Assembly: GCA_964390595.1 (NCBI GenBank)
Contig: CAYMIA010000001.1
Coordinates: 59,981-123,980 of the forward strand
Direction of reading: 5' to 3'
DNA length: 64,000 nt
From: an uncultured Gammaproteobacteria bacterium
Lineage (GTDB): Bacteria; Patescibacteriota; Microgenomatia; Daviesbacterales; UBA10151
Position numbers and translations under genes: made by a program. The notes beneath the pieces are model-generated. The model saw nothing but the letters and a program-made list of their open reading frames with translations. It searched no databases and was not told the origin of the DNA. Shown here piece after piece: positions 4,596 to 61,469 of this stretch (position 1 is the stretch's first letter; every line of letters starts with the position of its first letter).

Positions 4596-5003
4596 ATGAC
4601 AGATAATTTAAAGGTTAAAGGAGTTGAGAGTGTTTTATTGGGATCGGGTAATTCTAAACAGCTAGCAGATTTTTATAAAGATAAGGTGGGGTTAAAGCTA
4701 ACAACTGAGGCTACGATGGGTGAAGGGGATGAGGCGACTGATGTGTATGGATTTGACATGGAGAATGGAACAGGTTTATATATTATGAATCATTCAGAGG
4801 TCCATGGTAAGAATAATATGCCTGGAAGAGTGATGTTAAACATTGAGGTAGTTGGTCAGATCGAGGAGGCTGTTGAGCAATTGAAAGGGCGAGGAGTAGA
4901 GATGGTTGGAGAATTACATCACGTTGAAGGTTATGGCAAGATTGCGACTTTCGAAGACCCAGACGGAAATTATTTTCAATTGGTTCAAGTTAAAGAGATC
5001 TAA
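4596..5003 (+). CDS. VOC (glyoxalase/bleomycin-resistance fold) family protein
   Basis: 135 aa. The C-terminal ATFEDPDGNYFQLVQ is a hallmark VOC beta-strand motif. A GGAGGTG SD lies upstream. A paralog is present at 22644..23006. Confidence 0.6.
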   Translation: MTDNLKVKGVESVLLGSGNSKQLADFYKDKVGLKLTTEATMGEGDEATDVYGFDMENGTGLYIMNHSEVHGKNNMPGRVMLNIEVVGQIEEAVEQLKGRGVEMVGELHHVEGYGKIATFEDPDGNYFQLVQVKEI

Positions 5004-10983: not shown

Positions 10984-11053
10984 CTTTACAGATCTCTTAC
11001 TCAAAAATTGCTTGCTTTTTATTTTTTATTGGTAGTATGGGGAGGAAAGTGAG

Positions 11054-11701
11054 GTGAGAGAGATGGCAAGAATGGTATTGGGTGTTTTTTCTCTTCGAGA
11101 TGAAGCTGAGATGGCAATCCGTGAGTTAGAGCGGGCGGGTTTTGATCCTAAGGATGTTTCTATTATCATGAAAAACCGTGAGGAAGCCCGGGAGATCTCG
11201 GATAATACCGAGGCTAATATCGCTGGAGGAGCGGTGACTGGAGCGACTGCTGGTGGCGCAATAGGCGCGCTTGCAGGTTTACTAATTGGGGTGGGGGCGA
11301 TAGCAGTGCCTGGTGTGGGAGCACTCTTAATTGGTGGCCCGATTGCGGCAGCGCTTGGCTTAACAGGGGCGGCGGCAGCGACTGCATCTGGTGCATTGAC
11401 TGGAGCTTTAGCTGGTGGTTTGATTGGCGGGTTACTTAGTTTGGGTGTGCCAGAAACTGATGCGAGAATCTATGAAGACCGTATTAAGGAGGGTGGTATC
11501 TTGCTTTTGGTGCCAGTTACCGACGGCAATACTGATGAGGCCAGAGAGATTCTGGAGACTAATGGGGCTGATCAGATTAAGATTGTGGGAGACTTAAAGA
11601 GCAGAAGAGGTGAATATGAAAGTCAGGGTTCACCGGCTTTTTATAGTGATGTTCCTAGAAAAAGAAGTGAGATTGATGAGTTTAATGAAGATGATATTTG
11701 A
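11054..11701 (+). CDS. general stress protein (YflT/GsiB-like N-domain) with glycine-zipper membrane segment
   Basis: 215 aa. The N-terminal VVGVFSLRDEAEMAIRELERAGFD...VSII resembles the YflT-type heat/stress-induced domain. An extensive G/A-rich glycine zipper follows. Confidence 0.45.
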   Translation: MREMARMVLGVFSLRDEAEMAIRELERAGFDPKDVSIIMKNREEAREISDNTEANIAGGAVTGATAGGAIGALAGLLIGVGAIAVPGVGALLIGGPIAAALGLTGAAAATASGALTGALAGGLIGGLLSLGVPETDARIYEDRIKEGGILLLVPVTDGNTDEAREILETNGADQIKIVGDLKSRRGEYESQGSPAFYSDVPRKRSEIDEFNEDDI

Positions 11702-11771
11702 TTAAACTCAGTACTTGATTAACAAACAGGGGGGAAGCCCTCTGTTTGTTATAGAAAGGAGGTGACTTTTA

Positions 11772-11972
11772 ATGAAAGATGTGCAAAAACGTAATCCCAA
11801 AATGGTTACACCTGCTGGAGAGGAAGATTACACAATGACTGACAAACCAGCAGATTCAGGGGTAATGACAGGACAAAATGATTGGGAACAATATAACGCT
11901 GAGGTTTCACCGGATGACAGTGAGGAAGAGACGTTGGTTGGTGATGAAGGTGAAGATGAAGATGCAGAGTAA
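11772..11972 (+). CDS. small acidic protein (hypothetical)
   Basis: 66 aa, D/E-rich. A GGAGGTGA SD lies upstream. Confidence 0.35.
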   Translation: MKDVQKRNPKMVTPAGEEDYTMTDKPADSGVMTGQNDWEQYNAEVSPDDSEEETLVGDEGEDEDAE

Positions 11973-11989
11973 TCTGGTATAGTTATTCT

Positions 11990-12568
11990 ATGACCGGACG
12001 AACTCATGATTTGGCAGCTTTTACAGCGCTGAATTTGGTAGTAGCTACAAATTCTCCAAGTCAGCTAACATTAGCAACGGCTTTGGTGGGATTAACTGCT
12101 AATTTAATAGGGGGGTTGGCTCCGGATATAGATCAACCAACTGCGGAGTTGTGGAATAGATTGCCAGCTGGCTCTATTTTTGGGCGGATTTTATCACCGA
12201 TTCTGGGGGGTCACCGTTTCATCTCTCATTCGATCCTAGGAATGATTATATTTGGCTTGGGGAGCAAGTATTTACTTAACCTACTGGCCGGTGTTTTATT
12301 GGTGGATATGCAGGTCGTCTGGATCTGTTTTATGATTGGATTTGTTTCTCATTTACTCATGGATACTTTAACCAGAGAGGGTGTACCATGGCTTTTTCCT
12401 TTGCCAGTTAGATTGGGGGTTCCGCCACTTCGAGCGCTTCGGATGAAAACAGGTGGTTTGTTGGAGAAGATGATGGTTTTTCCTGGATTAATACTGGCTA
12501 ATGCCTATATTTATTACCGATATTATCCACAATTTATGGAGTTTTTAAGACATACGATCAGGTACTGA
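11990..12568 (+). CDS. membrane-bound metal-dependent hydrolase (YdjM/DUF457 family)
   Basis: 192 aa. The N-terminal TGRTHD, then HRFISHS and VSHLLMD motifs, sit in a TM context characteristic of DUF457. Confidence 0.55.
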   Translation: MTGRTHDLAAFTALNLVVATNSPSQLTLATALVGLTANLIGGLAPDIDQPTAELWNRLPAGSIFGRILSPILGGHRFISHSILGMIIFGLGSKYLLNLLAGVLLVDMQVVWICFMIGFVSHLLMDTLTREGVPWLFPLPVRLGVPPLRALRMKTGGLLEKMMVFPGLILANAYIYYRYYPQFMEFLRHTIRY

Positions 12569-20696: not shown

Positions 20697-20701
20697 GTGG
20701 G

Positions 20702-21244
20702 CTATTTTTTTCTTAAGTTTAGTACAAGAAGCGAGATAACGCTTAACACTGACATAATTAAAAAGAGAGTGCTAAATCCAAAAAGAGTAATGACAAAGCC
20801 ACTTAAAATACCTGCTATGGCGACAGCAGAGTTGCTGATGACTCCCCAAAGGCTCCATTCTTTGAGGTGTTTTTTAGGGTCCAGATTCTCTGAGATTAAA
20901 GTTTGAAAAGAAGGTGAACCAATTCCTTCTGAGATACCAATTAGGACCTGGGCGATAAAAAGGGTAGTAATTGTGGGCTGAATGACAAGTGAAAACCAGG
21001 CGATTCCACGGATAATAAAGTTTAATCTAAGCAATTTCTCATGCAAACTAACTTTGTCTGTTAGCTTTAACATGAAGAATTGAACGATGGTGGTAACAAT
21101 GAATTTAAGCCCAAATAAGATTCCTGCGAGTTCAATATTGCCACCAATTTTGGTGACAAATACAGCATAAAGGGGAACAAACAAACTTTCTGCAAATACA
21201 AAAATGGTGTTGCTAATGACTAGATATCTTAGATAAAAGTTCAC
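20702..21244 (-). CDS. six-TM membrane protein (half-size MFS-like)
   Basis: 180 aa and polytopic. No strong motif. It could be a truncated or half transporter. Confidence 0.35.
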   Translation of the reverse strand: MNFYLRYLVISNTIFVFAESLFVPLYAVFVTKIGGNIELAGILFGLKFIVTTIVQFFMLKLTDKVSLHEKLLRLNFIIRGIAWFSLVIQPTITTLFIAQVLIGISEGIGSPSFQTLISENLDPKKHLKEWSLWGVISNSAVAIAGILSGFVITLFGFSTLFLIMSVLSVISLLVLNLRKK

Positions 21245-21261
21245 CTGAATTTAGTATAGCA

Positions 21262-21756
21262 TTAAGCAAGGCCAGTTTTTCCGAGGATTTCAACAGAAAT
21301 GACTTTTCTTCCCAGAGGTCGGTTAGTTCTAAAAGGAATGTTTTTTACAATTAGCTCTTCAACTATTAGATTACCTGAGCGAAGGACAGTTACCAATGGC
21401 AACTTGGCTAATAACTCTGGATCTGTACTTCTAAACTCTCCCAACTCTTTGGCTTGATTTATGATATCTAGTTTTTTTAAGGCGTTTCTAGTTGGTTTGT
21501 TGGTAACTACGCCGCTAAAGGGAACATCATGACCTGTAATACTAACGAGCTCTTTGAGTAAGAGGCTGGCGATACCTCGGCGGCGAAATCTTTTATCTGG
21601 AACTAGGAGGTCCTCTATTTCAATAACTCCATTCGGATTTAAATAGTACTCTAACACTCCGACAGTAATTTCATTGAAATCGGCCACGATTGAGGTATGT
21701 GGTGTATCAATATAGTGCCTGATTTGCAGGCTTTCCAAAAACTCCGTTCCAGCCAT
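21262..21756 (-). CDS. GNAT-family N-acetyltransferase
   Basis: 164 aa with acetyl-CoA motif A, RRRGIASLLLKEL (R-x-x-G-x-A). Confidence 0.7.
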   Translation of the reverse strand: MAGTEFLESLQIRHYIDTPHTSIVADFNEITVGVLEYYLNPNGVIEIEDLLVPDKRFRRRGIASLLLKELVSITGHDVPFSGVVTNKPTRNALKKLDIINQAKELGEFRSTDPELLAKLPLVTVLRSGNLIVEELIVKNIPFRTNRPLGRKVISVEILGKTGLA

Positions 21757-21817
21757 CTGGATATTATAGGTCGGTATACTTTGAATTACAAATATATGAA
21801 TTACTTTTTGGTATACT

Positions 21818-22261
21818 TTGGCAATGAGACTTATTACTTCTGAGCTTACTACTCGGATTGTTGCCGAAGTTTGTGATTTGCTGAATAAGAATGGTGTGTC
21901 CTACTTAGTCTATGGAAGTGTTGGGGTTAAACTTCTAATGGAGGAAGATTTGCAGGTGAATGATATTGACATAATAGTGATGGAGTCTGATTTTGAACAG
22001 CTAAAGCAGCTATTAAGAAAATCTTTTAACCCTATTTGGACTGGTTTTAGTATTCATGCTAATTCCACAGAATATTTGGGCTATGACGGTAAGCCATTTG
22101 ATATTTCATTTGATTCTTATGGGCATTATTTTGCAAAGTTAGGAGTGGATTTTAGTGCTAATGTGGATAAGGATGTTAATGGAGTGACTATTAAAATTAT
22201 GCCTCAGGAAACATTGCATAAGATTTATGAAAAATTTTCTAGTAAGTATAGAGGTCGGTGA
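21818..22261 (+). CDS. nucleotidyltransferase-fold protein (ANT/Lnu-like minimal NTase)
   Basis: 147 aa. YGSVGV...NDIDII matches the G[SG]-x9-13-D-x-D nucleotidyltransferase signature. Confidence 0.45.
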   Translation: MAMRLITSELTTRIVAEVCDLLNKNGVSYLVYGSVGVKLLMEEDLQVNDIDIIVMESDFEQLKQLLRKSFNPIWTGFSIHANSTEYLGYDGKPFDISFDSYGHYFAKLGVDFSANVDKDVNGVTIKIMPQETLHKIYEKFSSKYRGR

Positions 22262-22268
22262 GACTTAC

Positions 22269-22502
22269 TTATTCTGTAGGTTGTTCTTCGGTTTGTTCTG
22301 ATTCTGCTAAGGTTTGTTGCTCTGCCTGTTGCTCAGCTTCGGTCAGTTGAGTTTTTAGCTGATCAATTTGTTCTCTGTCTGCAGTGATTCGGTGTTCATA
22401 TTCATCAACATAGCCTTGATAGGTAGCTCTATTATTCTCAGCTTGTTGTTTATCTGCCTCAATAGTGCTGATTTGATCTTTTATAGAACCTGGATTGGCC
22501 AT
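22269..22502 (-). CDS. small coiled-coil protein (hypothetical)
   Basis: 77 aa, Q/E-rich with heptad-like repeats. Confidence 0.35.
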   Translation of the reverse strand: MANPGSIKDQISTIEADKQQAENNRATYQGYVDEYEHRITADREQIDQLKTQLTEAEQQAEQQTLAESEQTEEQPTE

Positions 22503-22643
22503 GCGTATATATTAATCTTGTTTTGCAAGCTTGGTATAAAGAAAGAGTAAAGAAAAGGTAAGAAAGGTTTTGATATACTCAAGTTATAGATTTTAAGAAT
22601 TTAGTAGATAAATTAATTAAAGAGACTGTTGAAGAGTATGAAA

Positions 22644-23006
22644 CTACTTTTTCTCTTCCCAGGGAGTCATGAGTTGGAAATAGTTGCCGTCAGGATCAGC
22701 GAGGGTAGCGACCCAGCCACCGCCCATTTCGTAAGGTTCTTTAACTGAAGTCGCACCTGCTTTGACCATGCGGTCGTATTCTTCTTTAACTTCCTTGGTT
22801 TCTAGATTGAACATGAATCTAGAGGGTTCTTTTGACTCACCCCTTACTTCTGAGTGTTCACCAACCATTAAAAAGCAGCCACCTACTGACCAACCAGCGC
22901 CACTATCGTCAGTGTAGTCTGCAGTTTTATCAAAGATTTTGCCATAAAACTCGGAGAGGACTTTGGGTTGTGAGCTGCCAATCATGATGGAATTTAAATT
23001 TAACAT
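22644..23006 (-). CDS. VOC (glyoxalase-fold) family protein
   Basis: 120 aa. The C-terminal LADPDGNYFQLM is the VOC hallmark. It is a paralog of 4596..5003. Confidence 0.6.
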   Translation of the reverse strand: MLNLNSIMIGSSQPKVLSEFYGKIFDKTADYTDDSGAGWSVGGCFLMVGEHSEVRGESKEPSRFMFNLETKEVKEEYDRMVKAGATSVKEPYEMGGGWVATLADPDGNYFQLMTPWEEKK

Positions 23007-23013
23007 AGTTTGA

Positions 23014-23787
23014 TTATACTACAGCTTGAGGTTTTTTGGAATGGTTCAAACTGTCAAGTCCCGCTCGAAGTCGGGCTGCACCCCCAAGTTGGACTTGGGC
23101 AAGAAGGAGTTGACTAACAAATTCAGGAGGAGTATCTGTTCGAAGAATCCAGGGTTCGAGTTGAGCAGAAGAAAAAGGTGGGTGACTCTCCTCGGGCACT
23201 AGGTGAGTCTTTAGAAGCGGGAGGATGCCTTCTTTTAGACGGCCTTGATGTCTGGCCTTCTGGTAAGCGTCACAGACAAATTTATAGCAAACTTCCGCGT
23301 CTTCGGTAAGTTTGTGCGTATCAGTATAGGGGCGTCTACCAGTAAAGACTAATTCCATGATCCAACCGCTTAAGATCTCTCCCAGTAAATTAAGTTTTAA
23401 TTCTGGGGCAACATCTCCTTGGACATCTTCTTGATGATGTTCGTCATCAATCCACCGACTGCCAATTACTCCTGTGCCTGGTAGGCGGCCATATAGTTCC
23501 ATTAATTTGGCCCGATAGTCTACTTTATGACCAATCATGACTTTTCTTAGGCCATCGACTAATTTAGGGGTTTCCCGGTTTTGCCAAGTAGTGGCAATGG
23601 TTTCTGTCATAAGGTTAACGCGGTCGTCATAGGGAAGATTCTCTAAGGCACTATCTAGTAGGAATAAAATGGGGTCGCTCCAACGAGGGTCTTTGTTACC
23701 AAATATGACTTGTCTTTCTGGTTTTTCTGCTGCTCTGTCTGGACCCATAGATAAATGTAAAATACACTTCTTTAAATTTTTTGTCAA
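23014..23787 (-). CDS. hypothetical protein in higher-GC block, divergent from radical SAM gene
   Basis: 257-aa ORF. The likely start is the internal Met MGPDRAAEK. It is W/R/P-rich and sampled GC is about 47% against 35-40% in the surroundings. No motif recognised. Confidence 0.45.
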   Translation of the reverse strand: MTKNLKKCILHLSMGPDRAAEKPERQVIFGNKDPRWSDPILFLLDSALENLPYDDRVNLMTETIATTWQNRETPKLVDGLRKVMIGHKVDYRAKLMELYGRLPGTGVIGSRWIDDEHHQEDVQGDVAPELKLNLLGEILSGWIMELVFTGRRPYTDTHKLTEDAEVCYKFVCDAYQKARHQGRLKEGILPLLKTHLVPEESHPPFSSAQLEPWILRTDTPPEFVSQLLLAQVQLGGAARLRAGLDSLNHSKKPQAVV

Positions 23788-23833
23788 GGTTAAATTAATG
23801 TGCTCTAGGTGGATGGTGTAAAATAGGTAAGTA

Positions 23834-24751
23834 ATGCAAGAAGTAGGTCAAAACTCAGGTTTGGATTACCAAAAAGGTACTGTTGTACCAATTTTAGATT
23901 TGGAGATTTCAGGAGAATGTAATTTGCATTGTCCGACTTGTTGGGGGACGCCACCAAGTATGAAGCAAGAACATGGGCTTTCAGAATGGTTGTCCTTAAT
24001 TGAAAAGCTAAAAGTTGAATATGGTTTAGAAAGTATTGCTTTGACTGGAGGGGAGCCTTTAATGGTGCCAGGAATTGATAGTTTTATAAAGGGTGCTAAA
24101 GCAGGCTTGGGGTTAAATGTTAATTTGCTGACTAATGCGGTCTTTTTAGGAGAACACTTTTTTAGCATCAGGCCCTACTTGGCCTCTATTTCTGTTCCAC
24201 TTGATGGTTCAAATGAGATGATTAACCGGAGGTCCAGGGGTAAAGATCATTTTTCAGTGGCACTGGATTGGATCTCACTAATTAGCGGGCAGCATCCAGG
24301 ACTACCCTTAAAAGTGGGAACTGTGGTATCTGGTGCAAACATCCAAGATGTGCCAAATATTGGAGAAGTTTTGTTAGATCAGGGATTTAGTCAGACTTGG
24401 AAATTATATCAAGCGACAGCTTTTGGAGCTGCGCAGGAAAGTAGGGTTTGGAAAACAAGAAGAGTGACAGATCAAGATTTTGAGCGATTAGTGGTAGAGA
24501 TGACAAGGAAATTTGCAGGTCAAATGAATGTAACTGGTCTGTCAACTGTAGAAGTGGGTGGATATTGCATAATAGTTAGACCAAATGGGAATGTGGTGAC
24601 TAATTCTTTAATTGATGGGACTGAGCATTTGCTTTTTGGCAATATTTTTGATGATACTGCAGGGGCCATGCGATCGATTGGTGAATATCATGTTAGGGAC
24701 CGCGGTGTCCAGAGAATGGCCACTTCTTATGGTTTCCAAGGGCTTCGCTAG
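23834..24751 (+). CDS. radical SAM enzyme (single [4Fe-4S] cluster, no SPASM/twitch Cys cluster)
   Basis: 305 aa. CNLHCPTCWG is the C-x3-C-x2-C cluster motif, and GGEPLMV is the SAM-binding glycine-rich motif. The C-terminal half carries only one Cys. Confidence 0.8.
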   Translation: MQEVGQNSGLDYQKGTVVPILDLEISGECNLHCPTCWGTPPSMKQEHGLSEWLSLIEKLKVEYGLESIALTGGEPLMVPGIDSFIKGAKAGLGLNVNLLTNAVFLGEHFFSIRPYLASISVPLDGSNEMINRRSRGKDHFSVALDWISLISGQHPGLPLKVGTVVSGANIQDVPNIGEVLLDQGFSQTWKLYQATAFGAAQESRVWKTRRVTDQDFERLVVEMTRKFAGQMNVTGLSTVEVGGYCIIVRPNGNVVTNSLIDGTEHLLFGNIFDDTAGAMRSIGEYHVRDRGVQRMATSYGFQGLR

Positions 24752-24770
24752 GGTGTGTTATTATCATTGA

Positions 24771-25397
24771 ATGGAAAAAGTGGCGATTGTTGGGAGTGGG
24801 GTCGTTGGAAAGACTCTAGCTCAAGGGTTTAAGAAGCACGGTTATGAGGTAATAATGGGTTCTAGAGATGGCCAGCCAGTTGAGGGGTTTGATGGAGAGT
24901 TTGGTAAATTTGAGGAGGTGGTCAAAGACGCTAAAATTGTAGTTTTGGCGGTTAAGGGTTCAGCCGCTGAAGAAGTGGTTTCGAGCTTGAAGGATAATTT
25001 ATCAGGAAAAGTGGTTATTGATACGACTAATCCAATTGCGCAGGAGCCACCAGAAAATGGGGTGTTGAGGTTTTTTACCTCTTTAGATAACTCTTTAATG
25101 GAGAGGTTGCAAAAAAAGGCTCCAGGGGCTTATTTTGTGAAAGCTTTTAATAGTGTTGGCAACGCAGTGATGGTTAATCCTGATTTTGGTGGAGAGACAC
25201 CTTCAATGTTTATCTGTGGTAACAGTGAAGAGGCTAAAAAAGAGGTGGGTCAGATTTTAGAAAAGTTTGGGTGGGAAGTTGAAGATATGGGAATGGTGGA
25301 ATCAGCTAGAGCAATTGAGCCTCTTTGCATCCTTTGGTGTATCCCTGGAATGCTTAAAAATGAATGGCTCCATGCCTTTAAGCATTTAAAGAAATAG
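24771..25397 (+). CDS. NADP-dependent oxidoreductase, F420-dependent NADP reductase/ProC-like Rossmann protein
   Basis: 208 aa with the N-terminal dinucleotide-binding motif KVAIVGSGVVGKTLAQGF. Its overall pattern resembles the NADP_oxidored_F420 family. Confidence 0.55.
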   Translation: MEKVAIVGSGVVGKTLAQGFKKHGYEVIMGSRDGQPVEGFDGEFGKFEEVVKDAKIVVLAVKGSAAEEVVSSLKDNLSGKVVIDTTNPIAQEPPENGVLRFFTSLDNSLMERLQKKAPGAYFVKAFNSVGNAVMVNPDFGGETPSMFICGNSEEAKKEVGQILEKFGWEVEDMGMVESARAIEPLCILWCIPGMLKNEWLHAFKHLKK

Positions 25398-25691
25398 TCA
25401 GTCTTTATTAGCGTCTTCTCAGAAGGCCAAGTAGGGGTGAACCAGCTCCAATCAAAAAGCCAAATTGATACCAAGCGGTATCTCTGGCGACATCATAAAC
25501 AGGAAATTGGGCTAATATCCCAAAAATATGCAAAATAAGTAGTGGCCAAGCAGTTAATCCATTCCAAAGTCCAAGTAAAATATTTTCTAACATTAGATCT
25601 ATTATACACTAGTGAACAACTGATTGAACTTGCATCACATTATCATCCTATAGTTGGTTATTTTCTTAATATTCTGGTAGTATAAGCACTT

Positions 25692-26564
25692 ATGAATAAT
25701 CTTGAGGTTGTTAATGGGGATCTTTTAGTCACAACAGGTACTGAAGCTCTTGCAGATAGAGTTGTAGTTATAGAAAATAGAACTCTGGTTTTGCCTGCTT
25801 TAATAAGAGAACAGATGCGGGATTTGGATAATTGGGTTGCTTCTGGAAAATATTCTGCTGAAATATTCGCAGTGGGTCTCTCTAAAACTAATCAAGACAG
25901 AATAGAAGTTGTAGAGCTAATTGCACCTGATCCAGAGAAAATTTTTAGAATAGATGGTTTTTTTATAACGCCTCAACAAAAAGAGCTCCAATATTTACTC
26001 AGCGATTGCCAAACCCTTGCTATAGCGTCAATGAGTAGTGGTATTTTTTTGTATGCTCGCGGAATTGAAGGAACTGGTAAAGGCATCTTTTTTGAGGGAG
26101 GTGCTAATGGATCAATTGAGTGGTCAATTATCGCCAGAGATTTGAGCCAATTATTTGATCAAGAATTGCCTACCAGTGTTGAGGAAGCAAGATCCTTAAC
26201 TCCCTTGGAAGCTGAAGTTGACTTAGATGGAGTGATGACCTTAAGCAGTGCTAGCATAACAAGAGGTTTCTTAAAAAAGGTAGATAATAGAGCCCAAGAG
26301 GTCGGTTTAAAGATTGGTTACACAGTTCATCACCATCCCAGCCTTCAATTGGCTGTGTTGGCTTTACGAGGTAAAGATTTTAGCAGAAGACAAGCATTTT
26401 ATGATGAGCTATTAACTTACTCCCCAGGAGATATTGATACAATGAAAAGACTTGGAGCTGATTTTTTTGAGATCAGAGCTTTAGGAAATCCTCAAAATCC
26501 ATTTGATCCAAATGTAGGTGTAACAAGTAGAATTTATAGAACTGGAAGTAGTAGAATAGATTAG
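25692..26564 (+). CDS. hypothetical protein
   Basis: 290-aa ORF. No motif recognised. Confidence 0.45.
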   Translation: MNNLEVVNGDLLVTTGTEALADRVVVIENRTLVLPALIREQMRDLDNWVASGKYSAEIFAVGLSKTNQDRIEVVELIAPDPEKIFRIDGFFITPQQKELQYLLSDCQTLAIASMSSGIFLYARGIEGTGKGIFFEGGANGSIEWSIIARDLSQLFDQELPTSVEEARSLTPLEAEVDLDGVMTLSSASITRGFLKKVDNRAQEVGLKIGYTVHHHPSLQLAVLALRGKDFSRRQAFYDELLTYSPGDIDTMKRLGADFFEIRALGNPQNPFDPNVGVTSRIYRTGSSRID

Positions 26565-27160
26565 TGAGAAAAATTATTGTATTAACTTTTATTACATTGG
26601 ATGGAGTTATGCAGGCGCCAGGTGGACCAACAGAAGATACCTCCGGTGGGTTTAAGTATGGTGGATGGACAGCTCCATATTTTGATGATTTTTCTGGTAA
26701 GATCATGGCTGAACAGATGAGTCAGCCTTTTGAGTTGTTGCTGGGAAGAATTACATTTGAGATATTTGCTTCTTATTGGCCAGAGCATGAGAAAGATTGG
26801 CCAGGCATCAATAAGGTAACAAAGTATGTGCTATCAAATACACTCACCAAACATGAATGGAGAAATTCAGTCTTTATGGGTGGTGATGTGGTGGAAAAGA
26901 TCAAAGAGCTAAAAAAGAAAAAAGGACCAGACCTGCAAGTTTATGGGAGCAGTAATCTGATTCAGACCTTATTGAAGCATGACTTAGTTGATGAATTTTG
27001 GCTGAAAATATTTCCTCTGACCTTGGGGGAAGGAAAAAGATTGTTTGGTGAAGGGACTATTCCAGCAGCTTTCACCTTAGAAGAATCTAAAACTTCACCC
27101 AGTGGAGTAATCTTTGCTAACTACAAGCGGGCTGGCAAAGTTAAAACAGGATCATTTTAA
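26564..27160 (+). CDS. dihydrofolate reductase-like (RibD C-terminal domain, YwjB-like) protein
   Basis: 198 aa. KIIVLTFITLDGVMQAPGG...GRITFEIFASYWPE...VYGSSNLIQTLLKHDLVDEF is typical of the RibD_C/DHFR-like family. Confidence 0.7.
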   Translation: MRKIIVLTFITLDGVMQAPGGPTEDTSGGFKYGGWTAPYFDDFSGKIMAEQMSQPFELLLGRITFEIFASYWPEHEKDWPGINKVTKYVLSNTLTKHEWRNSVFMGGDVVEKIKELKKKKGPDLQVYGSSNLIQTLLKHDLVDEFWLKIFPLTLGEGKRLFGEGTIPAAFTLEESKTSPSGVIFANYKRAGKVKTGSF

Positions 27161-27232
27161 AGAAGGGTAAATAATACAAAAACAAGAAGGTCTATTTATG
27201 AAATTCCTAATTTCACCTGATATACTTTAATA

Positions 27233-27544
27233 ATGCCAACTGCGGCTGAAGAATTTCTAAGCATAATTAATGAAACTGTACCAAATGCCACTCCTGGTAT
27301 AGCTTATGGTATGGATTGTTTTATGTATAAAGGAAAACCAGTAGGGTCTTTAGTAGAAGCTAAAAAACACATTGGATTTTATCCGATGAGTGGTAGTATT
27401 GTAGAACAGTTTAAGGAAGAGCTTAAAGAATATTCAACTTCTAAAGGAACTGTTAGATTTCCATTAGGAAAACCTTTACCAAAAGGGATTATAAAAAAGA
27501 TGCTTTTGGCCAGAATTAAAGAGATAGATGAATCCCTGGGGTGA
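27233..27544 (+). CDS. DUF1801 (YdhG-like) domain protein
   Basis: 103 aa. The pattern GIAYGMDCFMYKGKPV...GFYPMSG matches DUF1801. A paralog is at 52639..53040. Confidence 0.55.
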   Translation: MPTAAEEFLSIINETVPNATPGIAYGMDCFMYKGKPVGSLVEAKKHIGFYPMSGSIVEQFKEELKEYSTSKGTVRFPLGKPLPKGIIKKMLLARIKEIDESLG

Positions 27545-27640
27545 TTGGTTGGATGTAGCTTGTACCTAACTCAAGAAATTTTAATCCCTTGATAATTATT
27601 TCTGCTTGATTATAATATCTTGATCTGCCTTATCATATAA

Positions 27641-28399
27641 ATGGCAACATTCACCACCAAAGAAATTGATATTCATGCTTTTCAAGCAGGGATATTTATG
27701 GCAGAGGCAGACTTAATTTCCCCTGTCGTGGTCGAGGAAACAGAGCATCCAGATATACCTCAAAGACTAGAGGATTTCTATGCAGCAATGAAGCGCCATC
27801 TTGATCACTGGTCTTCTTATGCTAGTGCAGCAGGAATTGGTCAATACTCACTGGTAACAGGTCAACCTGCTGGAGCTTTAGCCAGAGTCGATTCATACTT
27901 TAGAAACCCTACTGGAAGAGAAATGTTCGAGGATTTTCATAATTTTGGGGAACAGGTGATGGGTCCAGCTGTATTAGAAACCACTGATGAGCAAAGAGAA
28001 CAATTTAAAAATAATCTGGTCTTTAACTTCCTTGGCGAAGATTTTTACTTTGTCGGACCTCCTCGACTAAGGCGAACAGTTTTTTTAACTAGAGTCTTTC
28101 CTGGGAGTCTTCCACCTGATATCTCAGAATTCATCAGAGATATCGAAGGTATCAGTCAAGCTGATGAAATGATGACAACTCAAGGTTATCATCTATTTCA
28201 TGCGATAGATGGAAGGATGATGCATTTACCGTTTAGAGAAGCTACGGATTATGATCCGACAAAATTGACTTACTTTGGACAAATGAGAATGGAACGGAAA
28301 AGACTACTATTTTATCCACCAGATGAAAATAGGGTTGTTGATTTTACTCAAGCTTTCAGGAGAACCGCGTCTGACACTGGGGTGAGCGACGGGATTTGA
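27641..28399 (+). CDS. hypothetical protein
   Basis: 252-aa ORF. Its last codons overlap the 3' end of tRNA-His on the opposite strand. No motif recognised. Confidence 0.4.
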   Translation: MATFTTKEIDIHAFQAGIFMAEADLISPVVVEETEHPDIPQRLEDFYAAMKRHLDHWSSYASAAGIGQYSLVTGQPAGALARVDSYFRNPTGREMFEDFHNFGEQVMGPAVLETTDEQREQFKNNLVFNFLGEDFYFVGPPRLRRTVFLTRVFPGSLPPDISEFIRDIEGISQADEMMTTQGYHLFHAIDGRMMHLPFREATDYDPTKLTYFGQMRMERKRLLFYPPDENRVVDFTQAFRRTASDTGVSDGI

Positions 28400-28453
28400 A
28401 CCCGCGGCCATCGGTACCACAAACCGGCGCTCTACCACTGAGCTACGCCCACC
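28378..28453 (-). tRNA. tRNA-His (anticodon GUG) with encoded G-1 and CCA
   Basis: Hand fold on the reverse complement. Extra 5' G(-1), acceptor GTGGGCG/CGCTCAC (one G-U pair), discriminator C, encoded CCA, D-arm GCTC-AGTGGTA-GAGC, anticodon loop TTGTGGT (anticodon GTG), T-arm GCGGG-TTCAAAT-CCCGT. Confidence 0.8.
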
Positions 28454-28614
28454 AAGCGCAGGGATCATTCGGACAACCGCTGTACTAAACTATAAAGTCT
28501 TTACTGCCGAATAATCCAGCCCAAGCTAATATCAGCAACTAACTTAGTTGGAACTGTTTTAAAGTTTGGACTGTCGATATTTTAGCAGGAATTTGGAGTT
28601 TTCTCCAGTTGGGG

Positions 28615-29334
28615 TTAGGAACTATGGAGTTCTTGGAATTGAGCTCGCCACTTAATTACTTCGGGTCCTTCATCCATCCAGTTGTATTGGGAGGTGCTTA
28701 AAAAAGCTCTACGGCCTTGCTGGCGTCTTTCTTTGACCTCAGGAGATAGGAATGCCTCAGCTCTATTTTCTGCTTCAGTCATCCTTCGTCCTAATTCAAC
28801 CAACTCGGGATCAAGCACAAGAGTTCTTAGGTATTCAGCGTACCATTCCACCCATTTTTCGCGTTCTTCTAGAAGAGGCTTTTCAACCTCTGGGGCTTCT
28901 GCTTTATTAAAGAGACCTTCCCTACCTTTAGGTTCCCAACCAAACATTTGACCATAAAAATTGAGTGGCTCAGCGTATTTTCTAACTACATCTCCACTAA
29001 CAGTCAAATGTAGCTGGTCCCAATAATGTAAGATATATCTTCGACCGGTTTCGGTGACTATGCCAAATTTTAAAAGGGTATTTAGGCGGTGAGAGCCGAT
29101 AAGTTTGTAGTCAGATCGATCTCTTCTGCCAGTTTCTTCTAAAGCTTTATAACCTTCATCTAGAACATCTGAAAAGTCTCCATTAAGTAATTGCTCTGCC
29201 CTTATACTTTTTAGCCTAGCTAGTTCTGGGTTAGCTAAATCGGGGACCAAACCAAAAAGGCTGCGGAGTTCGCAGTTTCTTTCAATAGGTGTCATGCTGG
29301 CATATTGTTCTTTAAATCTATCTACTCTGCTCAT
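28615..29334 (-). CDS. hypothetical protein (R/E-rich)
   Basis: 239-aa ORF on the other side of tRNA-His. Its composition is richer in GC than the flanks. No motif recognised. Confidence 0.45.
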   Translation of the reverse strand: MSRVDRFKEQYASMTPIERNCELRSLFGLVPDLANPELARLKSIRAEQLLNGDFSDVLDEGYKALEETGRRDRSDYKLIGSHRLNTLLKFGIVTETGRRYILHYWDQLHLTVSGDVVRKYAEPLNFYGQMFGWEPKGREGLFNKAEAPEVEKPLLEEREKWVEWYAEYLRTLVLDPELVELGRRMTEAENRAEAFLSPEVKERRQQGRRAFLSTSQYNWMDEGPEVIKWRAQFQELHSS

Positions 29335-29394
29335 TGAGGATGAATACTAACAGAGACTTAGGAGCAAAATCAAGCATTAATGAGGTGGTTTTGA

Positions 29395-57760: not shown

Positions 57761-60556
57761 ATGACTATGATAGAGGGCAAACACAAAGACCTTTGGGGTC
57801 ACCAAGTCGCATTTGATACCGCTTTATTGGAGCGGGTTCCAAACCCCTCCCGCAGATTTCAGGATTGGGTAGAGTCGGCTATGCATGATTACAAAAAGGT
57901 GGTTATTCCTGCAGACAGTGAGACCGGAAAACCAACCGAGCGGATAGTTAATAGCAGCAGGGTTGATATAGCGGTTAGTGCAATTATTCAAAAAGGGTTG
58001 GCAGATAGCGCTTTGGAGGCGTTAAGTTATCTCAATGGGATGCTCGCCGATTTTAAACCAACTACTTCCCGGATCGCTAAGCAAGATTTTGACAGACGGG
58101 GAAATTCAGAGAAATGGCGGTTGATAAGAGAGAAGGTTGGGGAAACACCTAAACCCAAAACTGATACCACTCACAGACAACATGGGACTTTTGGGCATGT
58201 CGCTATCGCTGATATTTTGGCGAATATCATGACCAATAAGGAATCAGCTGTTCAGCCCAATTTGCCGCTTGTTTTAGATGGACAGCTGTCGTTACCAGGA
58301 GATTTTGGGGTTCCAAAAAGGGTGATTGATTGGGACTATATGACTGAGTTGGATCAATATCTGGGGGAACTGCGAACAATATTAGACCAAAATACTGATG
58401 GAAAGTTGACTTTTACTCGGGCAACTTTAGCGAATTTTGTAGGGAATAGGTTAAGTGAGCATTTAAGGTCAGTCTATGGAAATGAGCATATGGATAAGAT
58501 TAGATTCAATGGCGATCCAGGCCGGAATCATTTAACTGTATATACTTTGGCAATTTGGGGTGGCGCAGCTAAGTTCGCTTTAGGTTCAGATGCCCGGATA
58601 CTTTTTTCCGAGCTAGCTCCATGGAATGAAAAAGCCCACACTTTTAAAGGACGGCCGGTCAATGTTGGGCGGATGGATGCGGTTGAACTGACTAGTTTAA
58701 GTGGTCAACCTTTGTCAAATGAACAACTCAGAAGAGCCAGGCAAATTGTTCGGGAGCACCCTCGTAATACAGAGGAACTGTTACGTCATTTAATGGGTAC
58801 TTTTAATGGTAGTCTGGATCTTAGTCAAGATCTCAGGATCATTGATTTTAAAATGGGTTTCGGAGATGGTTCACAAAAAAATCAAGTTATCTATGCCAAT
58901 CAAATTGCGGAGGGGCCATTTCCAGATCATGCCCGTCAAATTCGTGATTACGCGAGCAATGCGACACTTGCAGCTTATGAAGTTATCCGGCAAGAAGGCC
59001 GGCCAGTCCCGGAAAACTGGTGGGACTTGGAGGCGTTTAATTTTGCCTCTTTGTGTTATTTTTTGCACAGTGATGATGAACCAGTTGATCATTGTGAAAT
59101 TGTGACTCCAGACCAAAAGAGAGAATATGCCGAGAGAAGAGCAGACAGGTTGCCTGTTGTGCAAAGAAAGGCTGATATTAGAGATACAGATAATTTTGTG
59201 GCTAATTATTTGGTTGGAGTGTTAGAAAATAGGGCGGTAACGCTACCGGTTCGGGCCTTGCCAATGCAAATGGAGGGTGTAACTGCGGTTTCAGAGATCG
59301 ACCGGCTATATGAAAGCCGCCGGGTTTTTGTTGATGGTCAAAGGATTGTGGAAGAAGTTGGGGGTAGAAACAGCCGGTTTAGGGTGATGCATGTCGATAC
59401 CCTAATTAAGGCGATTAACAGTGGAGATATCGAGACAGGTTATTTTGGTCTCGACCGTGGCGGAATGATTAAATGTTTTTTGCCTGAGCATGGAGGAGAA
59501 GATGATACACCTTCTCTATATTTGTCGATTGACAGGGGAACTTTTAAATGTTTTGGCCGGTGTTCAGGTATCCCGCCTTTTAGAGGAGGTGGCCGGTTTG
59601 CTATGGATTCTATTCCAGAGAATTTGCCAGAGATATCTGAGCAGTTTAGGTCTAAATACTTTAGGGGAGAGCGGGCATCAGGAACTGAACCAGACCAAGA
59701 TCACTTGAAATTTATGCGAGATGCTCAGGAGGTTTTTACCCGGGCTTTTAGAGATAGCCCAGCTCAGGATTATTTGACCCAAGTTAGGAAAATTGATGCT
59801 GATTTAGCGGCTGCTTATGGAGTAGGCTTTGCTACTGTCGGATCAATTAGACAACTGCTTGAAGCCTATGATTTGGACTCTCTTATTAGATATGGACTAG
59901 TTGGTTACTCGGAGTATAAAGGTAGGCGGGGGAGTTTGTATGGATTGTTGAAATATAAAGGTTATAGCGATGCAGACATTGTCAAGGAACACCTGGTGAA
60001 GAAAGGCATCATTGATAATCATTATCCTTATTTTATTTTGGATCAAACTGCGACTTTCCCCTTAACTTTAGATGCTTCCCGGATCAATAGTTTTTATGGC
60101 CGAACCGTTAATGAAACAAATAAGCGGTTTGCTCACCGAAAATTAAGGTTGGCCGACCATGGTGGCTTTAATATGGGCGTTTTAGAGAGCGGTTACGATG
60201 AACTAATTATGGTGGAGGCGCCCATTGATGGCTTAAGTTTTATTCAAATGGGTTTAGAAAATACAGCCGCATTAATTGGAGTGAATAATGAATTTATCTT
60301 AAGGCAAGTGGCTAAATCAGGCAAAGCTCTGGCTTTTTCATTAGACAACGATCCAACAGGCCGGGATGTGACGGCTCATCTGATATCGCATATGGGCCAT
60401 ATTAATCCGTCGCTTCGAACCCGAGACTTTACAGCGGCGTTGAATGACGCTTTTTACGAAGGACTATGGAGTAATCCAGTCAATTGGAAAGATGCTAATC
60501 ATTTGTTAACAAATTATGGACCGGATGTTCTGTCAAATATGCGTCTCGCCGCTTAA
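57761..60556 (+). CDS. DnaG-type primase core (zinc-binding domain + RNA-polymerase/Toprim domain) fused to a 560-aa N-terminal domain of unknown function
   Basis: 931 aa. Around aa 560-600 there is a CHC2-like zinc finger (IKCFLPEHGGEDDTPSLYLSIDRGTFKCFGRCSG). The DnaG linker follows (AQDYLTQVRKIDADLAAAYGVGFA). Next is the RPD N-subdomain (ILDQTATFPLTLDASRINSFYGRTVNETNKRFAHRKL). Last is Toprim (DELIMVEAPIDGLS ... FSLDNDPTGRD). The first 560 aa have no match I can recognise. No C-terminal DnaB-binding domain. Confidence 0.7.
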   Translation: MTMIEGKHKDLWGHQVAFDTALLERVPNPSRRFQDWVESAMHDYKKVVIPADSETGKPTERIVNSSRVDIAVSAIIQKGLADSALEALSYLNGMLADFKPTTSRIAKQDFDRRGNSEKWRLIREKVGETPKPKTDTTHRQHGTFGHVAIADILANIMTNKESAVQPNLPLVLDGQLSLPGDFGVPKRVIDWDYMTELDQYLGELRTILDQNTDGKLTFTRATLANFVGNRLSEHLRSVYGNEHMDKIRFNGDPGRNHLTVYTLAIWGGAAKFALGSDARILFSELAPWNEKAHTFKGRPVNVGRMDAVELTSLSGQPLSNEQLRRARQIVREHPRNTEELLRHLMGTFNGSLDLSQDLRIIDFKMGFGDGSQKNQVIYANQIAEGPFPDHARQIRDYASNATLAAYEVIRQEGRPVPENWWDLEAFNFASLCYFLHSDDEPVDHCEIVTPDQKREYAERRADRLPVVQRKADIRDTDNFVANYLVGVLENRAVTLPVRALPMQMEGVTAVSEIDRLYESRRVFVDGQRIVEEVGGRNSRFRVMHVDTLIKAINSGDIETGYFGLDRGGMIKCFLPEHGGEDDTPSLYLSIDRGTFKCFGRCSGIPPFRGGGRFAMDSIPENLPEISEQFRSKYFRGERASGTEPDQDHLKFMRDAQEVFTRAFRDSPAQDYLTQVRKIDADLAAAYGVGFATVGSIRQLLEAYDLDSLIRYGLVGYSEYKGRRGSLYGLLKYKGYSDADIVKEHLVKKGIIDNHYPYFILDQTATFPLTLDASRINSFYGRTVNETNKRFAHRKLRLADHGGFNMGVLESGYDELIMVEAPIDGLSFIQMGLENTAALIGVNNEFILRQVAKSGKALAFSLDNDPTGRDVTAHLISHMGHINPSLRTRDFTAALNDAFYEGLWSNPVNWKDANHLLTNYGPDVLSNMRLAA

Positions 60557-60572
60557 ATGTCTATTTAGTATA

Positions 60573-60601
60573 TTGACTAAATATTTCTTACCCCTTAGTA
60601 T
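60573..60601 (+). promoter_or_regulatory. sigma70-like promoter (TTGACT - 17 nt - TAGTAT)
   Basis: Near-consensus -35 and -10 hexamers with a 17-nt spacer. The next plus-strand gene starts 200 nt downstream at 60803, preceded by a strong SD (GAGAGGAGGTGA). Confidence 0.3.
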
Positions 60602-60802
60602 CGTAGAGAGGTTAAGCTAGGTGTTGCGACTAGAGCCTGTTTATCCCTTTTGACTAAACTATTACCATGAATTTACTGCCCCATAATTGTACTATTTTCT
60701 TTAATTCTCTTACAAATTCCTTCCTACTAAATTCGAATATCACTAGTATTTGTGTCTTTTTAACAAATACTATAGCTGATATCGAGAGGAGGTGAAATAA
60801 AA

Positions 60803-61408
60803 ATGAAATTAGGATATAAAGTTGGTGCGATGTTATCAACTGGAGCCTTGCTGGCTTCTGTTTTTGCTCCAGTAGCTTTTGCTAGCAGTGATGTGACCGT
60901 TTCAGGAAATGGTGCAGGTTCAACAAGTATTGTTAATGTATCCGGTGGAACTAGCGGTGGTGGAAGTGTTACTCAAACTAATAACACAACCGTGCTAACT
61001 ACGGTCAATGCTTCAAGCAACACAGGTTATAACCAATCTAATGCTAATACTGGTGGGGGTGTAAGCACTACTACCGGATCCGCTACAACAGGCGTTAACG
61101 TTTCAGTTGCAGGTGGTACAAATGTGGCAACAGGTACTGATTGTGGTTGCGCAACAAACACCAATACAGTCAATGTTCTTGGTAATGGAGCTGGATCTCT
61201 CAATTTAGTTAATATTTGGGGGAGTAAAAAAGGTTCTTCAACTAAACAAACAAATAATGTATTTGTTGGTGTGGGAGTAAATGCAGGATCAAATACTGGT
61301 TACAACCAGTCAAATGCAAATACCGGACCTGGTGGAGTCACCACAGCAACTGGTGGATCTACAACTGGTGTAGGAGTTAATGTGACGGGTTCAACAAACG
61401 TCCATTAA
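60803..61408 (+). CDS. secreted Asn/Gly/Thr-rich tandem-repeat protein (two repeats of about 85 aa)
   Basis: 201 aa with signal peptide MKLGYKVGAMLSTGALLASVFAPVAFA. Repeat 1: VSGNGAGSTSIVNVSGG...NASSNTGYNQSNANTGGG...VNVSVAGGTNV. Repeat 2: VLGNGAGSLNLVNIWG...NAGSNTGYNQSNANTGPGG...VNVTGSTNV. Confidence 0.55.
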   Translation: MKLGYKVGAMLSTGALLASVFAPVAFASSDVTVSGNGAGSTSIVNVSGGTSGGGSVTQTNNTTVLTTVNASSNTGYNQSNANTGGGVSTTTGSATTGVNVSVAGGTNVATGTDCGCATNTNTVNVLGNGAGSLNLVNIWGSKKGSSTKQTNNVFVGVGVNAGSNTGYNQSNANTGPGGVTTATGGSTTGVGVNVTGSTNVH

Positions 61409-61427
61409 ATCTTTTAGTTTTTCAAAT

Positions 61428-61460
61428 AAAAGCCCCTTGGGATTCAGGGGGCTTTTTTAT
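61428..61460. terminator. rho-independent terminator (likely bidirectional)
   Basis: AAAGCCCC-ttgggattca-GGGGGCTTTTTTATT: a GC stem followed by a T-run. It lies between convergent genes (60803..61408 + and 61470..62054 -). Confidence 0.6.
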
Positions 61461-61469
61461 TCCCGAGGA

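Follow-up and report, generated by a model that had tools for sequence, protein, structure and literature searches.

A rare viperin-related radical SAM protein, probably nucleotide-modifying, encoded in a Patescibacteriota contig

In a 64,000-nucleotide stretch of the contig CAYMIA010000001.1 (hereafter the window) we found that the gene at 23834..24751 on the plus strand encodes a radical SAM enzyme of 305 amino acids (aa) with a viperin-like fold and a single [4Fe-4S] site. It belongs to a rare, uncharacterised subgroup of viperin relatives and is probably nucleotide-modifying. The chances are slightly better than even that the protein is a functional enzyme of viperin architecture that acts on a nucleotide, and that its family is a sister of the antiviral viperins and lies outside them. 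The practical outcome for the window is that the gene can be annotated as viperin-like instead of unknown.

Motifs, fold and pocket of the radical SAM protein

The translation contains the cluster motif CNLHCPTC, with C29-x3-C33-x2-C36 encoded at 23918..23941, and the SAM-binding GGE motif in GGEPLM at residues 72-77 (G72-G73-E74-P75, codons at 24047..24058, both on the plus strand). The three cysteines are invariant in 91 of 91 relatives and align to C84/C88/C91 of mouse viperin, while G72-G73-E74-P75 aligns to viperin G125-G126-E127-P128. With these motifs (CxxxCxxC and GGE) and a Pfam Radical_SAM (PF04055) score of 46.1 bits against a cutoff of 29.5, the protein is a member of the radical SAM superfamily, in agreement with an earlier sequence-only reading of the region. 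As only four cysteines are present in the whole protein (residues 29, 33, 36 and 245), there is no second cluster, and on this point too that reading was right.

The same reading had found the protein unplaceable among known families. This was partly supported, as the protein stays below the family cutoffs given here but has a viperin-related placement. Membership of viperin or pVip (RSAD2; PADLOC models PDLC02903-5) was tested with NCBIfam NF038283, for which the curated cutoff at equivalog level is 180 bits. The protein scored 68.4 bits with this model, far below the cutoff. Kinase-linked relatives reached 85-103 bits with it, and the best E-value among the 91 relatives was 2.5e-46, which we estimate to be still <180 bits. 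The MoaA model gave 46.4 bits against a cutoff of 284, and by family HMM cutoff and small barrel the protein falls outside QueE and the NrdG-PflA activases. No match to SPASM/twitch (PF13186) was detected and the SPASM-family NCBIfam scores were all at least 350 bits under their cutoffs; that the protein is a peptide-modifying maturase of the RiPP type, acting on the product of a small neighbouring gene, we regard as highly improbable.

The fold that characterises viperins, a partial barrel with a C-terminal extension that closes the active site, is present in the protein, and its identity to solved viperins is only 17-19%. Three residues of the viperin pocket are kept, namely R135 (mouse R194), K160 (K220) and K190 (K247), whereas six positions are altered (D22, E24, S67, G162, T188 and L259). 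In mouse viperin numbering the six differences are N77D, H79E, K120S/G, N222G, R245V/T and a variable Y302, with D22/E24 forming an invariant acidic pair where viperin has N77/H79. We take mouse viperin N77, H79, K120, R194, R245 and Y302 to be nucleotide- or triphosphate-binding residues; the roles of K220, N222, K247, S124 and C314/K319 are documented in published papers. The residue of the beta-8 loop that stabilises the nucleobase is C314/K319 in the mouse, and in most prokaryotic viperins the C314 position is taken by a conserved Asn. In the hhalign alignment N270 of our protein pairs with mouse N313, immediately ahead of C314, in the end part where confidence is low. This position is N in seven of nine clade members and D in the other two, and N in 72 of 91 members of the family. 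Past residue 270 no reliable alignment of the C-terminal nucleobase loop was obtained, and the conserved C-terminal motifs of viperin are unalignable.

The architecture is that of viperin, a partial (beta-alpha)6 barrel plus C-terminal extension with one [4Fe-4S] cluster and without an auxiliary cluster. In the mechanism that we propose, the cluster would cleave SAM to a 5'-deoxyadenosyl radical, and this radical would attack the ribose of a bound nucleotide, or of a metabolite that contains one, and remove a hydrogen from it. R135, K160 and K190, the phosphate-binding residues kept from viperin, would hold this substrate, and a dehydration-type rearrangement as in viperin would then follow. 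Because D22/E24 replace N77/H79 and the K120, N222, R245 and Y302 positions are changed, the substrate or product is probably unlike the CTP/ddhCTP of viperin. The score of 68 bits against 180, the six pocket changes and the absence of a nucleotide kinase from the window count against this explanation, as does the unreliable alignment of the C-terminal loop. Fusion or adjacency to class II HMG-CoA reductase (HMGR) in relatives could mean that the substrate is related to CoA or isoprenoids instead of being a free nucleotide.

Neighbouring genes and composition of the region

The gene downstream (24771..25397, plus strand) encodes an NADP(H)-dependent oxidoreductase of 208 aa of the FNO/NpdG/STEAP-N-terminal family. 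It starts 19 nt after the stop of the radical SAM gene, and the spacer (24752..24770) contains no terminator-like site in the sequence or in a terminator scan. The two genes are probably co-transcribed. The protein scored 64 bits with PF03807 (cutoff 21.6) and its nearest PDB chain is 3dtt, 'NADP oxidoreductase' (E = 9e-20). The co-directional Rossmann NADP reductase of the earlier reading was thus confirmed. Like F420H2:NADP+ oxidoreductase, NpdG and STEAP it has an F420_oxidored domain with an N-terminal GxGxxG Rossmann motif, and it is similar over its full length to PDB 3dtt, 4huj and the STEAP3/4 reductase domains. With the NpdG model TIGR01915 it scored 62.1 bits, below the equivalog cutoff of 149.8. 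More than 8000 homologues exist, many at 62-66% identity. A search for linkage to the radical SAM gene from the reductase side gave none, and the reductase homologues stand alone in the loci L051-L053. The reductase is no conserved partner of the radical SAM protein. It might reduce the product of the latter, or the adjacency may be fortuitous.

On the other side lies a divergent ORFan (23014..23787, minus strand), which is 257 aa long from a TTG codon. Translation more likely begins at the ATG at 23748 (244 aa), as it does in the database copy. A glyoxalase-family gene on the same strand (22644-23006) follows 7 nt after it. The divergent intergenic region between the ATG start of the ORFan and the radical SAM gene (23749..23833) contains a sigma-70-like site on the minus strand (TTGACA-17-TATTTT, 23787-23759), which is a consensus match only, promoter-like sites being no commoner here than in shuffled sequence. 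No match to the ORFan was found in Pfam, NCBIfam, PADLOC or PHROG, phmmer gave no meaningful PDB match, and the sole match among 5.8 billion protein clusters was the protein itself, as fits its earlier description as unrecognisable. It had also been called W/R/P-rich, which its composition does not bear out (W 1.9%, R 6.2%, P 6.6%; the commonest residue, at 14%, is Leu). The GC content by codon position is coding-like (GC1 > GC2 > GC3), and a single-sequence AF2 model was all-helical and unreliable (pLDDT 46). The ORFan has no demonstrable connection to the radical SAM gene.

Beyond the reductase gene, at a distance of 3 kb downstream, lies a tRNA-His gene, and small accessory and unrecognised genes abound in the surrounding 20.7-29.3 kb. 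The sequence-only reading had suggested horizontal acquisition of a small module marked by higher GC, which is taken here as the recent joint arrival of the ORFan, the radical SAM gene and the reductase gene. The tight gene packing, the tRNA-His gene, the accessory surroundings and a slightly raised GC (0.424, where the window averages 0.397) agree with such an origin. However, the GC signal is weak (z = 1.7, with 6% of stretches of the same size as GC-rich), the GC3 of the genes (0.33-0.38) is no higher than in their neighbours, and the tetranucleotide distance is unremarkable, as 16% of stretches deviate as much; none of the three measures deviated significantly. Over 20-29.5 kb and around tRNA-His only short direct or inverted repeats at chance level and no att-like repeats were seen, and a scan of ten genes from 21.2 to 29.3 kb showed no integrase. 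Considering composition, repeats or integrase, and donor synteny, the region does not qualify as a recently acquired genomic island. The three genes occur together only in this organism and their phyletic patterns are wholly different (an ORFan, about a dozen clusters, and >8000 homologues). As synteny is lacking, the acquired module is largely refuted and in our opinion very unlikely, and it should not be propagated in annotation.

Relatives, gene contexts and candidate functions

About a dozen clusters make up the family that the homologue search yielded, the lineage occurs in Patescibacteria and DPANN archaea, and the best homologues point to Patescibacteria as the source of the window. The broader family is covered by 467 representatives. 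Close homologues share 52-69% identity and are rare and patchy across bacteria and archaea. In viral contigs and JGI metagenomes no relative exceeded 34% identity, the best being 33% in metagenome contigs and, in viral contigs, 34% along a short segment. The gene context differs in every genome compared; among the contexts of eight close or intermediate homologues, and in a tblastn that compared every window neighbour with all loci, no window neighbour recurs. Between L001 and L002 the same locus differs in that the radical SAM gene is flipped and a kinase-like gene inserted. An integrase adjoins the homologue in L005, and a NACHT/STAND NTPase is encoded near that in L006. One close homologue has an AAA_28/AAA_18 neighbour, cytidylate-kinase-like and guanylate kinase genes neighbour the broader family, and TIR-radical SAM fusions occur among its members. 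A methyltransferase beside the close homologues L004 and L056 was considered as a recurrent partner and rejected, the two methyltransferases not being similar to each other.

Deeper-branching members of the subgroup have other partners, which are absent beside the window gene. A class II HMGR gene adjoins the homologue in L006 and two adjoin that in L050, and JGI, ENA and Logan data contain a radical SAM-HMGR fusion (P0027) with UbiA and carotenoid genes nearby. An NMNAT-like transferase is kept in all three lineages, and the NUDIX genes of L006 and L048 are 60% identical. These radical SAM proteins share the signature residues of the window protein. In this genome the radical SAM gene would be an orphan from which the subgroup partners are missing.

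As a refinement of our best explanation, the protein could be a stand-alone antiviral effector resembling pVip, which upon infection would make a chain-terminating nucleotide analogue that poisons viral polymerases. This is possible but doubtful. The PADLOC pVip models match the protein, and its rare, patchy spread, the context that changes from genome to genome as with defence genes, the rearranged L001/L002 locus, the integrase and NTPase neighbours, the TIR fusions and the nucleotide kinases flanking the broader family are all consistent with it, as is the precedent of Ophion OpnA (bioRxiv 10.1101/2025.09.30.679545). On the other hand, the protein is below the viperin cutoff with an altered pocket, no kinase or recognisable defence gene is nearby in the window, and PADLOC matched no other scanned protein. 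Moreover, the HMGR, NMNAT-like and NUDIX partners look metabolic, the viral contigs contain no close relative, and no defence-island context has been demonstrated. These same partners raise another tentative possibility, that the enzyme works in biosynthesis with a nicotinamide-cofactor-dependent reductase on a nucleotide- or CoA-linked metabolite related to cofactors, lipids or isoprenoids, the ancestral class II HMGR having been replaced here by the NpdG-like reductase in a non-orthologous displacement. The fusion P0027 and its UbiA and carotenoid neighbours, the HMGR genes of L006 and L050, the shared NMNAT-like and NUDIX genes and the common signature residues argue for this, and so does the window reductase 19 nt downstream in the same orientation. 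However, the NpdG-like reductase has no relation to HMGR and lies beside no other radical SAM homologue, in five close homologues no reductase gene is adjacent, and the HMGR, NMNAT and NUDIX genes of DPANN archaea may be housekeeping genes clustered by chance.

A broader reading that we consider unlikely, though worth stating, is that the protein represents an undescribed sister lineage of viperin that is spread among ultra-small Patescibacteria and DPANN archaea. As native partners it would have a class II HMGR, which is fused to it in some cases, a NUDIX hydrolase and an enzyme resembling NMN-adenylyltransferase. Together they would produce or process a CoA-type nucleotide or a modified dinucleotide (adenine or nicotinamide), and here the unrelated NADPH reductase would substitute for HMGR. 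If so, the product might for example be an NAD or CoA analogue with a didehydro- or deoxy-ribose, and radical nucleotide chemistry would extend beyond ddhNTP synthesis. Patescibacteria and DPANN archaea have minimal metabolism, and either a defence or a cofactor-salvage role would be informative there.

Comparison with known systems

Viperins are among the few immune enzymes that humans share with bacteria and archaea, and the nucleotide analogues that they make are natural antivirals. They are frequently, but not universally, linked to nucleotide kinases, whereas none is found near the radical SAM gene in the window. Of the partners of the subgroup, class II HMGR, an NMNAT-like transferase and NUDIX, none to our knowledge is a described viperin partner. 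A viperin sister lineage whose substrate pocket is altered would widen the known chemistry of the scaffold, from which new nucleotide analogues could result; this would be of special note because of these fused or adjacent partners.

MoaA (GTP 3',8-cyclase), the usual outgroup of viperins, requires a second, C-terminal [4Fe-4S] cluster (three Cys) that binds GTP, and our protein, with a single Cys outside the SAM motif, lacks the cysteines for one. Ophion OpnA is a viperin-related but distinct defence radical SAM protein of a three-gene anti-jumbo-phage system, in which the Gammaproteobacterial enzyme is accompanied by the nucleotide-metabolism partners PHP and PRTase (bioRxiv 10.1101/2025.09.30.679545). 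Compared by description only, OpnA differs from the window gene in its partners, as neither PHP nor PRTase is present in the window. A relative from the subgroup (P0028) nevertheless resembles Ophion in having a phosphoribosyltransferase gene directly upstream.

Viperin as the nearest known family

The gene at 23834-24751 (+ strand) encodes a 305-aa radical SAM protein that a sequence-only reading had left without a family. Its motifs CNLHCPTC (C29, C33, C36) and GGEPLM were present as that reading described, and the protein scored above the Pfam Radical_SAM threshold (46 bits vs 29.5). As it contains only four cysteines (29, 33, 36 and 245), it has no auxiliary cluster, in agreement with the earlier remark that a second Cys cluster is missing. 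Viperin was consistently its nearest known family. The top NCBIfam match, at 68 bits and covering positions 8-246 of a 281-position model, was NF038283 ('viperin family antiviral radical SAM protein'), which outranked SPASM maturases, MoaA, PqqE and NrdG, and PADLOC returned three prokaryotic viperin (pVip) models only (best E = 5.5e-21). The AlphaFold2 model, made with 12 homologues as input, was confident (pLDDT 86, pTM 0.87), and its top 12 Foldseek matches in the PDB were all viperins or viperin-like enzymes, the first being mouse viperin with CTP (6q2p; TM 0.78/0.81, 302 columns, 18% identity). Profile-profile comparison of the close clade, formed by the nearest homologues, with three verified viperin sequences gave 97.2% probability over 223 columns.

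This clade comprised ten clusters at 41-69% identity among 5.8 billion protein clusters; the gene is carried by 3 of 185,579 species representatives, and JGI metagenome and viral contigs gave no match above 34% identity. Its members come from Patescibacteria, one unclassified bacterium and one archaeon (with archaeal ribosomal protein genes at the locus), and the relative P0026, 43% identical, is from 'Candidatus ainarchaeum'. The window protein is a radical SAM enzyme with one cluster, built on a viperin scaffold and kept under selection across bacteria and archaea.

An exhaustive profile search (E ≤ 1e-30) gave a broader family of 467 representatives, mostly 275-300 aa and matched over their full length. 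All 91 sampled members matched the NCBIfam and PADLOC viperin models, which in both libraries surpassed every other family by E-value, the ten context-resolved members reaching 85-103 bits only (viperin cutoff 180). The family profile matched viperin best among PDB chains (118 bits; SkfB 97, BlsE 85, MoaA 81). Based on these model scores and this ranking, the broader family is a putative sister family related to viperin that has no NCBIfam model of its own. MoaA was the outgroup in published viperin phylogenies, in the available text of which no such sister group is described.

Genomic setting of the locus

The sequence-only reading had proposed that three genes in a GC-richer block form a small, horizontally acquired module. 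All three ORFs were found where it had placed them. The downstream gene (24771-25397, + strand, 208 aa) indeed encodes a Rossmann NADP oxidoreductase, of the F420_oxidored/NpdG/STEAP-N-terminal family (PF03807, 64 bits; PDB 3dtt, E = 9e-20). Its ATG lies 19 nt past the radical SAM stop codon, a terminator scan found no terminator-like site in this gap, and the two genes are probably co-transcribed. Across 22400-25800 the scan gave 9 such sites vs 2.8 ± 1.6 in shuffled sequence, most of them within coding regions. The divergent 257-aa protein (23014-23787, - strand) was as unrecognisable as reported: Pfam, NCBIfam, PADLOC and PHROGs gave no match, and the PDB no meaningful one. Its sole match among the 5.8 billion clusters was its own database copy, which has 244 aa and starts at the ATG at 23748. 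Contrary to what had been stated, its composition is not particularly W/R/P-rich. A glyoxalase-family gene lies on the same strand, 7 nt beyond its end. The window holds two glyoxalase-family paralogues (4596-5003 and 22644-23006), about 18 kb apart and 34% identical over 127 residues. The stretch 20700-29340 is crowded with small accessory or unrecognised genes (GNAT, aminoglycoside-nucleotidyltransferase-like, glyoxalase, RibD_C), including four proteins without a family match (257, 290, 252 and 239 aa).

The GC content of the three-gene region was slightly raised (0.424 vs a window mean of 0.397), but the excess was weak (z = 1.7, with an sd of 0.016 among equal-size windows), and 6% of such windows were at least as GC-rich. 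Its tetranucleotide usage was ordinary, with 16% of windows equally far from the window average, and the GC3 of the three genes (0.33-0.38) was not above that of the flanking histidine kinase, beta-lactamase-like and 579-aa genes (0.36-0.42). Elsewhere in the window, the strongest tetranucleotide deviation (60200-61800) and the highest 1-kb GC (0.459, 11000-12000) exceed those of the flagged region. No att-like repeats were found flanking the region, none of 10 genes scanned at 21.2-29.3 kb was an integrase, and tRNA-His (28378-28452, - strand) showed no tie to the locus. The 3' end of this tRNA gene is overlapped by about 20 nt by the 252-aa ORF (27641-28399).

The three-gene arrangement recurred only in contigs of the same organism (L007-L009). 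On one of them (L007:2345-2887) the reductase is called as 180 aa only, with 100% identity across 87% of the query length, which suggests a 5'-end sequence difference or another start call in that sample. The close homologues sit in unrelated contexts: flanked by an AIRS-domain gene and a conserved hypothetical gene (L001/L010 and L002, the latter with flipped orientation and an inserted AAA_28/AAA_18 kinase-like gene), within a sugar-nucleotide and glycosyltransferase cluster (L004), past a ribosomal operon and adjoining an integrase in an archaeon (L005), or adjoining a methyltransferase (L056). The L002 record is labelled Gammaproteobacteria, yet the locus is syntenic with the Patescibacteria contigs L001 and L010. 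Its radical SAM protein P0004 (349 aa, L002:593-2253) has an aberrant C-terminal tail and an overlap of about 140 nt with the convergent kinase-like gene, so that the gene has probably suffered a frameshift or is decaying.

When each of the window neighbours was searched by tblastn in the full set of retrieved loci, none recurred. The reductase family is very large: at least 8000 proteins match at E ≤ 1e-10, hundreds of them at 62-66% identity, and Nitrososphaera/Thermoproteota and 3-Mb genomes are among the sources. Homologues of the reductase are solitary genes in contexts unrelated to this one. As neighbours do not recur and reductase homologues are solitary, the three genes are not a conserved unit. 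The closest named reductase relatives (62-66% identity) belong to Nitrososphaera/Thermoproteota archaea and to bacteria with large genomes rather than to Patescibacteria, so the reductase gene itself may have been acquired separately and earlier. The claims of a three-gene module and of its horizontal transfer were removed for the window.

Partner genes in more distant relatives

Deeper-branching relatives and the broader family have other partners, none of which is encoded anywhere in the window's 64 kb or next to a close homologue. P0027, recorded by JGI, ENA and Logan, is a radical SAM protein fused to an HMG-CoA reductase (HMGR) domain, and the genes of P0026 and P0010 are followed by two and one HMGR genes, respectively. 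The HMGRs are class II, with two copies passing TIGR00532 and two just under its cutoff. All three loci encode mutually homologous nucleotidyltransferases, with archaeal NMN adenylyltransferase as top NCBIfam match (66-80 bits vs a 127-bit cutoff). This module of NMNAT-like, radical SAM and class II HMGR genes (L048:5529-9620, L049, L050:1284-5263 and L006:5321-8588) spans three divergent lineages, one a DPANN archaeon. L006 and L048/L049 add a NUDIX gene (60% identical between L006 and L048). In L048 the module adjoins type IV secretion genes (TrbC, TrbL, TraC, TraG-like), UbiA and carotenoid genes. The module, found in other genomes, is the more interesting lead.

In five loci of the broader family (L016, L018, L021, L025 and L027; e.g. 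L018:6971-9733) the radical SAM gene is directly followed by a pentapeptide-repeat protein gene, with an ion-channel domain (Ion_trans_2) in the L018 copy, and after that often comes a cytidylate-kinase-like or guanylate kinase gene. The arrangement resembles a viperin-like system of three genes that is new to description; its radical SAM proteins reach only 85-103 bits vs the viperin cutoff of 180. Cytidylate-kinase-like genes were neighbours in 3 loci; guanylate kinase, NUDIX, cytidylyltransferase-like and QueC genes were also found, as were TIR and NUDIX fusions to the radical SAM domain.

Predicted chemistry and relation to known systems

At 68 bits, the protein falls far below the 180-bit cutoff of canonical viperin. 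Mouse viperin residues were numbered by adding 44 to their index in the deposited chains, by which C84/C88/C91 fall correctly. Mapped onto the clade, the cluster and SAM motifs are retained, as are T100/N101 (viperin S157/N158), D124 (D182), R135 (R194), K160 (K220), K190 (K247), Q193 (Q250) and N270 (N313). However, N77 and H79 are replaced by D22 and E24, both invariant in the clade, and further replacements are H93 to G38, K120 to S/G67, N222 to G162, R245 to V/T188 and Y302 to variable residues. Apart from C314/K319 and K220/N222/K247/S124, the roles of the viperin residues are those we take them to have in viperin-CTP structures. The picture from this mapping is of a viperin scaffold that would keep part of the phosphate-binding set in a less basic, remodelled pocket. 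The C314 position is a nucleobase-stabilising Asn in most prokaryotic viperins (Shomar et al., bioRxiv 10.1101/2023.09.13.557418). N270 aligns one residue ahead of it in a low-confidence part of the alignment, past which none was possible, and is thus only a lead as a candidate counterpart.

In the proposed reaction, SAM would be cleaved to a 5'-deoxyadenosyl radical, which would remove hydrogen from the ribose of a nucleotide, or of a metabolite that contains one, bound through R135, K160 and K190; a dehydration-type step, as in viperin, would follow. Because D22 and E24 are invariant and the pocket has lost three basic or polar residues, the enzyme probably acts on something other than viperin's CTP. 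The nucleotide-centred partners of the relatives (kinases, NMNAT-like, NUDIX, phosphoribosyltransferase) support a nucleotide substrate. Relatives have a class II HMGR either fused to the protein or encoded next to it, and here an NADPH reductase is probably co-transcribed; this recurring association with nicotinamide-dependent reductases suggests a possible subsequent reduction. Coupling of the window reductase to the radical SAM product is speculative, as this enzyme is no relative of HMGR and its pairing with the radical SAM gene is not conserved. The window protein and the module radical SAM proteins probably catalyse the same reaction, judged from their common signature residues (D22, E24, W37-G38-x-P40, G-x-Y244-C245, R249-P-N-G, N257, E264, R294 and Y299). 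Overall, we lean slightly towards viperin-like nucleotide chemistry. Within that reading, a metabolic role and a role in defence can each be put forward only tentatively, with equal weight.

The gene's annotation is corrected to viperin-like: its product falls outside the curated viperin family and belongs to a rare subgroup whose partners are unusual. Among the relatives, P0028 has a phosphoribosyltransferase gene directly upstream and three other radical SAM genes around it, giving a cluster of four radical SAM genes (L054:4132-8943), two of them with SPASM matches. This cluster is reminiscent of Ophion, which pairs a radical SAM protein with a phosphoribosyltransferase and whose OpnA offers a recent example of a radical SAM protein that acts in defence and is related to viperin yet distinct from it (bioRxiv 10.1101/2025.09.30.679545).
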